Part shown: positions 52,918 to 64,000 of the stretch, in pieces
Position numbering within the stretch: the stretch's first letter is position 1
Layout: each line of letters opens with the position of its first letter
The notes under the pieces: model-generated
What the model was told of the DNA's origin: nothing
The model's input: the letters and a program-made list of their open reading frames with translations, nothing else
Database searches by the model: none
Translations under genes and position numbers: made by a program
Assembly: GCA_000165345.1 (NCBI GenBank)
Contig: CM000434.1
Coordinates: 1,248,001-1,312,000, forward strand
Reading direction: 5' to 3'
DNA: 64,000 bases

Positions 52918-53917
52918 AGTTAATACAATTAATGTATTTGGACAGGGTATTTAACTCTGGCGTAGTAGGATAGGCTCTGTTTTAGCTTTTAAATATTTAA
53001 CTTTATACTTTGTTTTATTTCTATTTTGCTTTTAGTAATATTTATTAACTATTCTTTAAGTTTCTGTGACTAAATGTCAGCCTCGAATTTAAATAGCGAT
53101 GATAAGGTTCTAATAGATTACTTATATCATAATTTTAATAATTATTAATATTTGTTCCTAGCTTTTTAAGATTTAATTGTTTTATGTTTTTGAATATCCC
53201 TTGCCTCACAAATTTTAATTGCTAAATCATTTGAACATAATTGTTTACAAAAATCCAAATTTTAGTCAACATGTTTGGTTAAATCTGATCAATATTTATA
53301 TATTCAATAGAATAACACATTTTCTATAATTTTACTCTTCCAATTTTCGACAATTAGTATACATTATTTGTTTATTTACATATATAAAAGGCTATATATC
53401 TTCATTTAGTTAGACAACTATTAATTTAAAAAGCCCTGCAAATAATGTTTTTTTAATGATAAAATAATCAATTAATTTATAATACTTAACAGATTTTAAA
53501 GAATAAATTCAAAATTTTAAGATAAAGATATACTTTTTATAAGGTATAAGTTATTTTAATATACTTTTATCAAATACATGACAAATTAAAAATCATTTAT
53601 TACAATCTGAATATTTTCGATTACTATCTCAGTAGTTGGTTAATAAAATATCTCAAAAGAATTGCAATGGTTATTGACTTTACAAAGACTCAATAAATAA
53701 TAAAAAATCTACATTAATCCGATTAAACTATAAAACAAACTAATCTCTAATATTACGAAATTAAAAAAGATTATAATTAAAGTACAATAATAAATGATTT
53801 TAACAAAAGCTCATTTGACATCAATAAATTAAATGATAAATTCCAGATTTCAGTCCGAAATTATAAGCAAATATTCATATGGGTAACTGAAAATAATAAC
53901 AATCCCAATTAAAATTT

Positions 53918-54017
53918 NNNNNNNNNNNNNNNNNNNNNNNNNNNNNNNNNNNNNNNNNNNNNNNNNNNNNNNNNNNNNNNNNNNNNNNNNNNNNNNNNNN
54001 NNNNNNNNNNNNNNNNN
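53918..54017. other. Scaffold gap of 100 N
   Basis: A run of N in the sequence. Confidence 1.
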
Positions 54018-59656: not shown

Positions 59657-62600
59657 TCTACTATTAAAATGATAAATAAAACAATTAAATCTCTAATAAA
59701 GTATCAAAAGTTTTAATATTTTGAAATTTCTCGGGAATTAATTTAATATTTTTATTGCGTTTCTTGTTATCGTGGGTATTTTTTCTCTCTTTTTTTCAAG
59801 ATATTTGTTAAAGTTAATTTAACAAAAGATTTTCTTAAAAGCAAAGATATTTTGATAATATTTTTATTCAGACTCTAAATCATCATTAATTTTATACTTA
59901 CTACAAAACAATAACAAAAATATTAATTTAACAATTTTTAATAGCAACAAAAATCAGTAATAAGCAAGAAAGAGTGATGATAATGTATTTTTAAATTAGA
60001 ATATTTCATATTATTATCAATATTAACAATATTATTACTTTATATTATATTTTATTATTATATATTTCAAACTTCTCTTTATTTATCTGCAAAATTAATG
60101 AAATATTTTCTTTTAAACTCGAACTCTATAATAATGGAAATCGGAAATTTTACTTCCCGCAATTAATAAATATTTGAATTAAATTATTTTTCTTCATTTT
60201 ATTAAAAATTGTTTCTCCCTGTTAAATCATTAATTTTTGTTTAATTCTTTTGTTGATAAATATTATTAAAGGTTAACTTAATAAATTTATAATTGAATAA
60301 ATTCATAGTCAAAAGATTAATTCACTTAAATTTGCTTGATCTAATAATAATAATAAATCATATTAAACACAAAAAAAAAAAATTAAAAAAATTAGATGAT
60401 AAGAATTACAGTAATAGAATGATATATAAATTTATGTTAGAAATAATAGTTATACTTGTATCGTGTTTTTTACAATAATTTTCAATTTAAAAATCTTTAT
60501 TCAAATATTATGATATACTATTGAGTTGATAGTAAATTGAAAACTATAAATATAATTATTTATATTATTATATAATTTATGTATTAAATTAAAAAAATAT
60601 GATAAAATTATTATTACTAATAAACGAATATGAATTCAATAGTAAATTTTCTTAAATTAAGAATTGTTGATAAATTAGAAATAATGTAACAATAAAACAA
60701 ATAAAATAAAATAAGAAAAAAATATTATTTGGAAAATACATTTATTAAGTTGGAATAATGAACCTTTTTTTATTAATAAGGATATTAGCATTGATCTTAT
60801 ACTAAAAATATGTTCTTGATTATTTTTTAAGGAGATAATATTCAATAATTTGCAAATTTATATTAAGAGAATAATCATTTTCAAATTTGTGTAAAAATAT
60901 TTATTTTTCAAATCAATTTTTTTTCAAAAAAAACATTTATAATTCATATAGCAACAATACATCTTAATATTATCTTTATTTTTTTTATCATTGTTTGAAA
61001 ATGGTATTAAAAATGTTTAGGAAAAGACATCTACATAATAAGAATTAGAAATTATATACTAAATGAGAAATTTTTAAGTATTGTTACAAAGAATTAAGGA
61101 GTTTCGAAAATAGGATAGGAAAATTAGTAATTCTGGCAGGATTTTTACAGTAACACATTAAATATTTCGTTTATCATCTCTTTATTCTATTATTAACAAA
61201 ACAAGTGTCAAGAATATTTCTTTTTTTATAACTTGGGTAATAAAGATAGAGATTATTCTAAATCAGTTACACAAAAAATATTATTGGATAAACTTTATTC
61301 CAGTTCTGAATATGAGTAATATTATGATAGAAGGAAGAAATATTTATTAGATTAAAAAAATGTTTAAATAAAAAAAAAGTTAGACTTTAGTGGAAGAACA
61401 AGTAATTCTATTAGAAAAAGATTTTAAATATTAAACATTCTAAGACTTAAATATGGAAGATATATACAAATTTTGTATAAGCAAATTTTTTTTCAGATAA
61501 ATAAAAATCACTTCCACAACTTGATCAGAGATAATACTGGTGTTAAAAAAAAAAAATTAATAAGTGAACTCAATATATTCTTAAAAAATTGAATTTTAAA
61601 ATATTTAATATTTTTAAAGTTAATAACTAATTGAAGTTAAACTATATTTAGAAAAGTAAGAAAATTTAAAGCTTTGGCTCATAAAATCAAAAATGATTAT
61701 AATTATTGAATAAAATTGTAACGAATATAAATAAAGCTGTACAAATAAGGAATTATAAATTTTAATATTTTTAAACAATTATTAATTAAATAGTTTTTTA
61801 ATAAAATAAATAAACTTTAATAAAATCAGGATTTTAATTTTCGGTTCTTTTTCTAAACAATATTATTATATTTTTGTTTGGCCTGCAACAATACTTTTTG
61901 AAACTTGAATTGACCTCAATAAGAATTTTAAAATTTGAAATACATGAGAAATAAATTTAAAAAAAAAAAGAGAATAAAAAAGCGAATAAATTTGACTAAA
62001 TCAAGAGAATATACGCATGTAAGACATTTTAAATATTTTATTATAACATTTTTTTAATATACTATATTTCACATAAATGAGCTATTATCCATTGTATAAT
62101 AATAATAACACTAGAATACAGTTAGAATTATTTTAAATCATTTTTTCTTTATAAATTCTATAAATTATTTTGGTCTAATATTATTAGTATAAATCCATAT
62201 TGTCTAAACACGTAATAATAAAGCACACGGATTACTTACAAAGTTGTGATTTTAATAATTTTTGGCTTTATATTTTCTTAAAAAAATAAGAATATCAGTT
62301 TTGAAGTAGTAATTAAGTCAATTAGAATATATTGAAGATATCAAACAAAAATGAAATATATAAAAAAGTGTTAATTTATTAATAAATTTAAGATTGCATG
62401 TAAATCATTACATTGATTATATATTCTGATATGTTTAGTATTAAACAAGAAATCAGACGAATTGAATTTAATAAAATTTTGAGAAAAATTTGCTAGATTA
62501 TTAATGATGTTTTTTTTTCAGAATTAGATTACCGAATACCATACAATAATATATTCAATTGTCTTAAATAGTAGAAGCTAATCTTGAAATTCTTAATAAT

Positions 62601-64000
62601 TAAATTTCTTTACAAAATTATCGGTTTTATTTTTCTTATTAAAATCATACTTTATTTTCAATTTCAAATAAAAATTCAAAAAAAATCTCTCGCAACAATC
62701 ACTGGGTTTTCAGAAGTATCAAGGGTTGATTTTTTGTTTAAGCAAAATTTCTTTAATTATGATTGAATCTAAAAAAAATTATTTGTTCCAAAATTCAAGT
62801 ATATTTCCATCTAAATTTTTAATATTTTTGTCAAAAGAAACAAGATAAAGACAAATTCCAGATATATTGCTACAAATGTTTTTTTTTTGTATGAAAAAGA
62901 TAAACTAACTGTTTTTGTGTATAAATTTCACAATAGAATTTACTTTTAATGATTGAAGTTGGAATTTTGTTAAAATATAATTCTTAAAATTATTATTTTC
63001 TACTATATCATGCATCAAAATTGCACTAATAACATTTTCTGATTTCGAGATATGTTAAAAGTAAATTTTAAAACCTTTTATAGAGAGGATCTGCCATTAT
63101 GATACAAGGAAATTTCAAATGTTTTCCAAATTCAAACATTTATCTTGAATTTTATCTTTAAAGTTAGAATTTGAAGAATAAAAAGAACTAAAATATTTGT
63201 TAATTTTTTTTAACTCAAAAATATTGGATAAAATAAATAATCATTTTTAAGTAAATGTTTAGATGAGAGTTTATTAATTATTTTTAAAGATTGTGTTGGG
63301 TCTAATTTCCGTTAAAAAAAAAATCCCAGTAATTTTTAATTTGTTAAAATTATTTAGTAAGATGGTTAAACTCATAAAAAAAGATAATTCACAGTCTATT
63401 TGGGATTATAATGAATATTTCTTATTTAATAATATTGCGTAAATATAAAATATTATTGCCAAATTCTGATTTAAGAATTCGGTTTTTAAAACAGTTTTTA
63501 AGGTACTTCTTTTTCTGATCAAAAATAAGTATTAATGATACAAGTTGAAAAATTAGATATAAATACTTGCAAATTAGAAGAATTTGTTTAATTTCATCTG
63601 TAGACCTAGTAAATCTAAATGATTTTGGTTTGTTATATTAAGGTTGAATATGAACTTTAAATATAAATTAAGGCTTCATAAAATGTGGAGTAAATTTCAC
63701 AAAAATATTTAATATTTGTCTCAAATAAAAAGATAATAATTCAAAAAACAGATAGATTTAAACGATGTCTAATGAAAAATCTGAAATTCTATATTCAAAA
63801 AAACAATAGGAAAAATGAATCTAAGTTTAATATTTGATTTAATAACATTGCTATTAATAGCGAGATAATAAAAGAAATTATTCAACTTTATAAATTATTT
63901 CCGATTAAAATTAGAAAAATTGTTTTTATAATCAGCTCTGTATTTTAAAATTGTCTTAGGAAGCTTAATGAGAAGATGCTTTTTTATCAACATGATTAGA

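Follow-up and report, generated by a model that had tools for sequence, protein, structure and literature searches.

The locus and its composition

The window analyzed here is a stretch of 64,000 bp from the chromosome 6 record of the Cryptosporidium parvum Iowa II reference (CM000434.1, positions 1,248,001 to 1,312,000), and our subject is its right-hand part from 52918 to 64000. An earlier note, made from the letters of the sequence alone, had flagged this part as one hyper-AT, nearly gene-free block containing an assembly gap and had proposed a centromere or, alternatively, subtelomeric DNA next to an unresolved repeat. Read from left to right, the block comprises 1 kb of intergenic DNA behind an ABC transporter gene, a run of 100 N, an AT-rich spacer (spacer-1), one gene for a secreted FGLN-family protein of 429 amino acids (aa), and a second AT-rich spacer (spacer-2).

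The sharp loss of genes after 53 kb described in the note is real. The coding share falls from 79% up to 52917 (17 long open reading frames, ORFs) to 11.6% beyond, and the 429-aa gene, which the note had named as the single plausible gene, is the sole ORF of at least 120 aa past 52917. The GC content declines from 33.0% at 1..53000 to 21.2% at 53001..64000. The non-coding DNA of the block has 19.3% GC, whereas the value for the window's 16 ordinary intergenic stretches, which are 0.2-1.1 kb long, is 28.5% (chi-square 217, p 5e-49), and A/T runs of at least 8 nucleotides occur 2.5 times per kb in the block against 1.2 times per kb in ordinary intergenic DNA. A clear rise in AT content was observed as claimed, but not to the level of 85-90%: the mean is 79% (80.7% in the non-coding parts), the peak around 59.1-59.7 kb reaches 85% in segments of 1-2 kb and 87% in segments of 500 bp, and 90% is never attained. 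The poly-A/T runs (a T17 homopolymer and A12 runs at 60371 and at 61545) are present, and so is the microsatellite given as (ATT)16, measured by us at 17.3 copies; a short-read contig (L018) ends within it. A scan for tandem TTTAGG/CCTAAA arrays found none, as the note had stated.

The two flanks of the gap belong to different chromosomes

The note had treated the block as one piece, which it is not, since the flanks of the gap map to different chromosomes. For the left flank we compared four chromosome 6 records (CP029785.1, CP141123.1, CM109966.1 and BX526834.1; loci L004-L007). The window is colinear with all four from 36457 to 53917 (positions 1..17462 of these loci) at 99.9-100% identity to the last base before the gap, and from 54018 onward it has no match in any of them. 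Past the junction all four records continue with an NFDQ-type gene (168/244 aa) followed by the gene of a 1,120-aa M16 'telomeric insulinase-like protease'. The left flank corresponds to position 1,298,889 of 1,307,820 of chromosome 6 in CP029785.1, which leaves 8.9 kb to the chromosome end. Five independent short-read contigs (L008-L012) cross the true junction into chromosome 6 sequence with an identity of at least 99.9%. A 1,277-aa gene at 46457..50290 of the window is likewise on chromosome 6 in the four records, about 12.5 kb off the right end.

The right flank was compared with the chromosome 5 loci of CP044418.1 (IOWA-ATCC; L001) and CP029784.1 (IOWA-CDC; L002) and with the first 16 kb of CP029784.1 (L025). 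Window positions 54020..64000 correspond to positions 7149..17123 of L001 and L002, that is, to chromosome 5 positions 21,092 to 11,118 in CP044418.1 and 29,055 to 19,081 in CP029784.1, and there are zero differences to either record between 54701 and 64000. CP029784.1 opens with at least 24 CCTAAA dimers at 1-215, and the post-gap DNA of the window lies 29.1 to 19.1 kb off this (CCTAAA)n telomere. In CP029784.1 telomere repeats, for which the note had suggested looking past the window end, lie 19.1 kb from the equivalent of window position 64000. The order in CP029784.1 is (CCTAAA)n, INS, NFDQ, two MEDLE genes, a cysteine-rich 218-aa gene, spacer-2 (9,994 bp), the 429-aa gene, spacer-1 and a 576-aa gene (cgd5_10). 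On the true chromosome 5 the neighbour of the 429-aa gene is this 576-aa gene, 7,322 bp away across spacer-1, and not the ABC transporter gene. We had considered that the 576-aa gene in L001 might be the ABC transporter gene of the window; BLAST ruled this out and exposed the chimera. Moreover, the true chromosome 5 junction is spanned by a short-read contig (L003), which matches L001 1379..12173 with 100% identity.

The same chromosome 5 layout is present in Cryptosporidium hominis (CM098022.1), Cryptosporidium tyzzeri and Cryptosporidium meleagridis. The C. hominis locus of a human isolate (L024) opens with a telomere array, and the equivalent of window position 64000 lies there at about position 5,739, i.e., 5.7 kb from the repeats. 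In human C. hominis isolates the telomere is reached 0.7 kb past a 219-aa gene, and the genes further toward the telomere are absent.

The junction in the window is an N placeholder, and its flanks lie on different chromosomes in the four chromosome 6 records, the two chromosome 5 records and C. hominis CM098022.1. We conclude with high confidence that the block is chimeric, with the chromosome 6 3′ and chromosome 5 5′ subtelomeres falsely joined at the 100-N gap, and that its AT-rich DNA appears to be unconstrained spacer. The note had named an assembly artefact revealed by long reads as grounds for giving up its proposal; the gap is indeed a false join, but the AT-rich DNA is genuine. What follows the gap directly is an error-ridden contig end. 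Over 54018..54673 the window departs from L001, L002 and L003 by 130 substitutions and 22 indels (152 errors in 656 bp), and at 93 of the 130 substituted positions the other assemblies have A or T where the window has G or C. The bump in GC content at 54-55 kb is due to sequencing error in this low-quality contig end.

Both flanks are subtelomeric by several measures. A telomere array lies within tens of kb (CP029784.1; L024 of C. hominis), and Cryptosporidium-specific secreted families are represented by FGLN in the block and by two MEDLE genes, NFDQ and INS on its telomere side. Sequence is shared between chromosome ends in the terminal 10 kb or so, while the flagged spacers are unique apart from low-complexity matches.

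Proposed origin of the false join

The chromosome 5 5′ and chromosome 6 3′ termini are paralogous. L004 19060..23834 matches L025 7346..2560 with 96.4% identity over 4.8 kb including INS, and the NFDQ part (L004 17525..18949 and L025 9616..8223) with 83.7% over 1.4 kb; the duplication has the same polarity relative to the telomere at both ends. The chromosome 6 contig of the window stops at L004 17462, 63 bp short of the start of the paralogy. A subtelomeric repeat common to both gap flanks was also considered and rejected: a BLAST comparison of the chromosome 6 end with the chromosome 5 locus gave only microsatellite-type matches inside the flagged part, and the actual duplication was found nearer the telomere. 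The alternative offered in the note, subtelomeric DNA adjacent to an unresolved repeat, was essentially right, as both flanks are subtelomeric and the gap lies just before this duplication.

We propose the following course of events. The last 10 kb or so of both chromosome ends share the terminal duplication of telomere, INS and NFDQ, and the Sanger assembly would have broken the chromosome 6 contig 63 bp before this unresolvable stretch. The contig with the chromosome 5 copy would then have been scaffolded onto chromosome 6. Besides the AT-rich spacers and the FGLN gene, this misplaced contig would also hold the two MEDLE genes and the cysteine-rich gene. Its inner end lies inside an AT-rich spacer and is made up of low-quality read tail over some 650 bp, and the post-gap part of the window reads toward the chromosome 5 telomere. 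The legacy numbering, with the ABC transporter as 6_5450 (cmbei_6005450), the 429-aa gene as '5g5460' and further genes as 5480-5511, is consistent with this mis-scaffolding. Genes 5480-5511 (MEDLE, NFDQ, INS) have been placed at the chromosome 5 5′ end, with paralogues of INS and NFDQ at the chromosome 6 3′ end (PMC11685829). The 'chromosome 6' of C. hominis UKH1 (LN877952.1; L023) shows the same mis-order as Iowa II and contains two internal telomere arrays beside 100-N gaps; this reference-guided assembly inherited the order of Iowa II.

One could also imagine a real subtelomeric translocation between chromosomes 5 and 6 in the clone or isolate used for the sequencing of 2004. Ectopic recombination is possible between subtelomeres with 96% identical terminal duplications, and drift has occurred in Iowa stocks with time (PMC8744675). 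The join point on chromosome 5, however, is in unique spacer DNA, 19.4 kb inward from where the shared duplication ends, and homologous exchange would therefore not yield this junction. Furthermore the junction is a placeholder of 100 N with no sequence, and the first 650 bp or so of the contig behind it are read tail full of errors. BX526834.1, an independent Iowa chromosome 6 sequence from 2003, runs on into NFDQ and INS, and all Iowa-derived long-read assemblies as well as many short-read contigs agree with one another and contradict the window. A real translocation is in our view extremely unlikely.

The corrected arrangement is already known, as both the published long-read assemblies and the gene identifiers incorporate it. 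Rearrangement boundaries in Iowa II fall on gaps, and the long-read order was validated by polymerase chain reaction (Baptista et al. 2022, PMC8744675). These authors name inversions and relocations on chromosomes 2, 4 and 5; the chromosome 6/chromosome 5 junction at this gap is not spelled out in the searched text of their paper. A telomere-to-telomere assembly moved 44 genes to other chromosomes (PMC12179316). This junction is implicit in the newer gene identifiers (5g5460, 5g5480-5511).

For users of the 2004 Iowa II reference, which is still widely used, the false join means that about 29 kb of the chromosome 5 5′ subtelomere appears on chromosome 6, together with the FGLN, MEDLE, NFDQ and INS genes, and that some 650 bp at the joined contig end are incorrect. 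No valid conclusion on linkage, synteny, Hi-C contacts or centromeres can be drawn across window base 53918, and the error has been propagated to at least one reference-guided C. hominis assembly.

Features and neighbouring genes

The coordinates of the features are compiled in Table 1.

Table 1. Positions of genes, spacers and sequence features in the window and in the compared records
Feature	Record	Position	Strand	Remarks
ABCG-type ABC transporter, legacy cgd6_5450	Window	50986..52917	+	Last chromosome 6 gene before the junction; outside the flagged block
Chromosome 6 3′-subtelomeric intergenic DNA, ABC transporter to NFDQ gene	Window	52918..53917	.	21% GC; genuine
Run of 100 N	Window	53918..54017	.	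Scaffold gap, chromosome 6 3′ end to chromosome 5 5′ end
Error-ridden contig end of spacer-1 (low-quality Sanger tail)	Window	54018..54673	.	33% GC in the window, true value 19%
Spacer-1, telomere-side 2.2 kb	Window	54674..56877	.	Non-coding, unique, 18.8% GC; 100% identical to L001/L002
T17 homopolymer	Window	56640..56656	+	220 bp 5′ of the 429-aa gene
429-aa secreted FGLN-family protein gene	Window	56878..58167	+	EAK87299.1 (Iowa II), CPATCC_001990 (IOWA-ATCC), CPHLJ_5g5460 (a further chromosome 5 record)
Spacer-2, first 5.8 kb	Window	58168..64000	.	GC 18-26%; 100% identical to L001, L002, L018
(ATT/TAT) microsatellite	Window	59605..59656	+	Tandem Repeats Finder: period 3, 17.3 copies, 95% matches
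INS	CP029784.1	2666-6025		
NFDQ	CP029784.1	8778-9662		
Two genes with products ending ...NINMEDLE	CP029784.1	10272-12192		
Cysteine-rich 218-aa gene	CP029784.1	14263-14919		
429-aa gene	CP029784.1	24914-26203		
(CCTAAA)n array	LN877952.1	7233-7440 of locus L023		Adjoins a 100-N gap
(CCTAAA)n array	LN877952.1	16373-16540 of locus L023		Adjoins a 100-N gap

The 643-aa ABC transporter has the Pfam domains ABC_tran and ABC2_membrane, and its product is identical to QOY41430.1 and CAD98355.1; the Iowa II version is EAK90178.1. EAK90178.1 and the 429-aa protein EAK87299.1 are annotated on one and the same Iowa II record.

The chromosome ends differ somewhat between assemblies and isolates. The 429-aa gene is found at 16,951-18,240 in CP044418.1 and at 24,914-26,203 in CP029784.1, and from this offset the IOWA-ATCC chromosome 5 appears to be short of a terminal INS/telomere segment of about 8 kb, which is probably missing on account of the chromosome 5/chromosome 6 duplication. 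In the UKH1 isolate the chromosome 6 telomere follows about 770 bp past the equivalent of window position 53917, so that the chromosome 6 NFDQ and INS genes are missing. The cysteine-rich gene is annotated with 218 aa in IOWA-CDC and with 272 aa in IOWA-ATCC and in the short-read calls, the two versions differing by an upstream start codon (compared at L025 14263-14919, at L018 1798-2616 and in L001 past 21285). In C. tyzzeri PYHZ01000005.1 (L015) a gap of 7,355 N lies in the orthologous spacer-2 at about 13.5-20 kb of the locus, so that this assembly, too, failed in the region.

Several core chromosome 6 genes of the window contain in-frame tandem repeats (35372-35487, 36098-36492, 37668-37741, 38181-38357 and 44914-45040), which probably encode repetitive or low-complexity protein segments. 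Among them are 33-bp units (at 38181 and 44914) and a 63-bp unit repeated 6.3 times (36098-36492).

The FGLN-family gene

The only gene of the block, whose legacy number is presumably cgd6_5460, is fast-evolving but real. Its product is 100% identical to that of C. parvum, and orthologues share 91% (C. hominis), 79% (C. tyzzeri), 77% (C. meleagridis) and 56% (chipmunk genotype I) identity with it. The reading frame is intact in five species and was aligned across four of them with no indels. Identity between C. parvum and C. hominis at codon positions 1, 2 and 3 amounts to 94.7%, 95.3% and 94.4%, which suggests that the ratio of nonsynonymous to synonymous substitution rates may be near 1.

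With phmmer we found 24 remote homologues of like length. Two of these are Cryptosporidium felis proteins annotated as 'secreted protein of cryptosporidium-specific FGLN protein family' (E = 1.5e-40 and 5.1e-39), matching residues 93-427, and others are named 'secreted membrane-associated protein'. The FGLN-type motif reads FGLK at residues 296-299, with F296 and G297 invariant in the five orthologues. By inspection, an N-terminal hydrophobic leader, MKLISLFIFAILLCQLNIYSVLS, can be recognized. The protein has no Pfam domain. An AlphaFold2 model built on the alignment of five sequences was all-helical and of such low confidence (mean predicted local distance difference test score, pLDDT, 41; predicted template modelling score, pTM, 0.32) that it was unusable.

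Nature and evolution of the AT-rich spacers

The composition of the spacers is that of neutral sites: 19.3% GC compared with 18.3% at 5,159 four-fold-degenerate sites of 17 core genes. Their divergence is similar to that of third codon positions as well. Identity of the spacers is 94-96% to C. hominis and 81-87% to C. meleagridis, and at codon position 3 the corresponding values are 93-94% and 75-83%. For the part of spacer-2 held in the window we found 94% identity to C. hominis and 81% to C. meleagridis, the latter with 19% gap columns. Gap columns make up as much as 19-31% in the spacers compared with 0% in the FGLN gene, and about 1.8 kb (window 54.5-56.2 kb or so) and 0.7 kb (about 62.9-63.5 kb) are absent in C. 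meleagridis.

Hidden genes were considered and ruled out, with limited power, by ORF counts, tblastn and periodicity. Nine ORFs of at least 50 aa are present in the spacers where an estimated 12 or so are expected by chance, no pseudogene remnants turned up when ten proteins, neighbouring or subtelomeric, served as tblastn queries, and two curated annotations call no protein gene in the spacers. No tRNAs were found, and an Rfam search of 52900..64000 gave no matches. Tandem Repeats Finder and a repeat search detected no repeat families or satellites, only the ATT microsatellite and low-complexity chance pairs.

Since GC content, substitution rates and indels are similar to those of neutral sites, the spacers would seem to be unconstrained subtelomeric DNA at an AT-biased mutational equilibrium; composition and rates are measured here, and the lack of function is what we infer from them. 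On one side of them is the variable cluster of telomeric genes, on the other the chromosome 5 core, and they flank one FGLN-family gene. The hyper-AT composition is no sign of a specialised chromosomal element. In the very compact genome of C. parvum, a content of 80-85% AT is normal for unconstrained DNA.

A number of points weigh against the false join of unconstrained spacer DNA as we describe it. On the side of the assembly, the route of the mis-scaffolding, presumably by a HAPPY-map marker in the duplicated INS/NFDQ segment, is conjectural; that the misplaced contig would reach the scaffold end is taken from the legacy gene numbering and the copy in C. hominis UKH1; and the predicted scaffold length (1,298,889 + 100 + 29,055 = 1,328,044) is 4.8 kb below the actual 1,332,857 bp. 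On the side of the spacers, their position is conserved across C. parvum, C. hominis, C. tyzzeri and C. meleagridis. No codon periodicity was found in the cross-species spacer substitutions, but the test is weak, as even the real 429-aa gene reached only p = 0.03. To speak of a neutral spacer is moreover to argue from the absence of a signal, and roles of non-coding RNA or chromatin may exist. Finally, in a part of spacer-1 (L001 3000-6000) conservation exceeds that of the two genes on either side (576 aa and 429 aa).

This island is hidden by the gap in the window and is seen in CP044418.1 chromosome 5 as a non-coding stretch of about 3 kb with 86-93% identity to C. meleagridis counting gaps. 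It has 24-25% GC and is free of codon periodicity. An Rfam search of L001 2600..10000 gave one snoRNA-like match, sub-threshold at 27.9 bits compared with a gathering score of 50; it is of the H/ACA type and lies at L001 3003-3112. The island may be an unannotated non-coding RNA or a regulatory element.

The spacers could be functional non-coding DNA, e.g., a heterochromatin buffer, a zone of replication origins or the host of a long non-coding RNA, which is compatible with a false join. With 7.3 and 10 kb they stand out, as coding sequence otherwise makes up 79% of the genome and intergenic stretches in the window measure 0.2-1.1 kb, they have been kept in the same place in the four species, and the island that outconserves the flanking genes contains a published window of the CENH3/H3K9me3 type (centromeric histone CENH3 and histone H3 trimethylated at lysine 9, H3K9me3). 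We nevertheless regard such a function as unlikely: within the window the substitution rates match those of third codon positions, indels are large and frequent, the composition is neutral, and neither Rfam families nor, in two curated annotations, genes are present. A more specific version assigns a chromatin function to the whole chromosome 5 5′ domain of about 18 kb, which consists of both spacers plus the FGLN gene and is represented by 10 kb in the window; this appears very unlikely to us. Such a domain may, as heterochromatin, insulate core genes from the INS/NFDQ/MEDLE cluster or may be a CENH3/H3K9me3 domain under-sampled by shallow, AT-biased profiling, and if so the conserved position and the conserved island would reflect selection and not inertia.

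The centromere proposal

The nature of the C. parvum centromere was unknown until recently (PMC11213348). In a study of CENH3 by cleavage under targets and release using nuclease (CUT&RUN), no regional peak was seen on any chromosome of C. parvum; there were 405 dispersed windows of 400 bp on all chromosomes, 347 coding and 58 intergenic, with GA-rich motifs, and the same protocol recovered all 13 centromeres of Toxoplasma gondii (bioRxiv 10.1101/2025.09.30.679541). The note had suggested mapping CenH3 as a check of its proposal. We placed the CENH3 windows of the S2 and S3 datasets onto CP029784.1 and CP029785.1, the coordinate system being inferred from the gene identifiers (cgd5_10, cgd6_5450). 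None of the 405 lies in chromosome 5 19,081-29,055 or chromosome 6 1,297,889-1,298,888, the parts that 52918..64000 covers. Closest to them are Chr5:31470-31870, in the gap-hidden portion of spacer-1, and Chr6:1296554-1296954, in the ABC transporter gene. The former is intergenic and maps into the conserved island, on CT/GA-rich sequence. The latter corresponds to about 51583-51983 of the window, if the coordinates are those of CP029785.1, and has no obvious GA repeat.

Some observations fit a regional, Plasmodium-like AT-rich centromere. The block has few genes and the highest AT content in the window, with 85-87% at its peak, and the position of the two spacers is conserved in four Cryptosporidium species. 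Of the 58 intergenic CENH3 windows, one (Chr5:31470-31870) is situated in spacer-1, some 2.4 kb beyond the portion included in our window, and the libraries were shallow (2.7-3.2x depth, 84-93% genome coverage; bioRxiv 10.1101/2025.09.30.679541), so that hyper-AT DNA could have been under-sampled. The block is, however, not one contiguous locus but two stitched chromosome ends, and neither end is internal with core genes on both sides: the chromosome 5 part lies 19-29 kb and the chromosome 6 part 8.9 kb from the ends. The true chromosome 5 region, 15-33 kb off the telomere, adjoins on its telomere side genes which human C. hominis isolates lack. Satellite or tandem arrays are lacking, a single trinucleotide microsatellite apart, the AT content equals that of four-fold sites (19.3% against 18.3% GC), and kilobase indels separate the species. 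The CENH3 sites themselves are GA-rich and mostly genic and form no regional peak. Given the subtelomeric position, neutral composition, lack of repeats, kilobase indels and absence of a CENH3 window, the centromere proposed in the note was not borne out, and we hold it to be extremely unlikely at this place. AT-richness by itself is not a centromere signature in Cryptosporidium.

Comparison with known systems

The 429-aa gene resembles the telomere-proximal FGLN, MEDLE, NFDQ and INS families in its homology to FGLN proteins and in its place beside MEDLE, NFDQ and INS; its product has a hydrophobic leader and the FGLK motif. It differs from them in being single-copy at its locus, with no paralogue remnants in the spacers.

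The centromeres of Plasmodium falciparum are 2-2.5 kb long, have about 97% AT, bear repeats and occupy one internal site per chromosome. The block resembles them in its AT-richness and lack of genes. In contrast to them it has 81% AT (87% at its peak), is longer, interrupted by a gene, adjacent to a telomere and devoid of repeat arrays, its composition is that of neutral sites, and published data show no CENH3 enrichment. The centromeres of T. gondii are gene-free over about 16 kb and marked by CENH3 and H3K9me3 (bioRxiv 10.1101/2025.09.30.679541). Here the block is a gene desert of like size, but T. gondii has one such domain per chromosome by CUT&RUN, whereas C. parvum shows no regional domain.

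The closest counterpart is the chromosome 5 5′ subtelomere of the long-read assemblies (CP044418.1, CP029784.1; PMC8744675, PMC11685829, PMC12179316), with which the window is base-identical over 54701..64000 and shares the gene order; the copy in the window differs in being attached to chromosome 6 by a 100-N gap and in having its first 650 bases or so corrupted. As with the Iowa II artefacts described by Baptista et al. (2022, PMC8744675), the boundary falls on a gap, and long reads, other species and contigs favour a revision. Whereas those artefacts concern chromosomes 2, 4 and 5, the present case joins chromosome 6 to chromosome 5.

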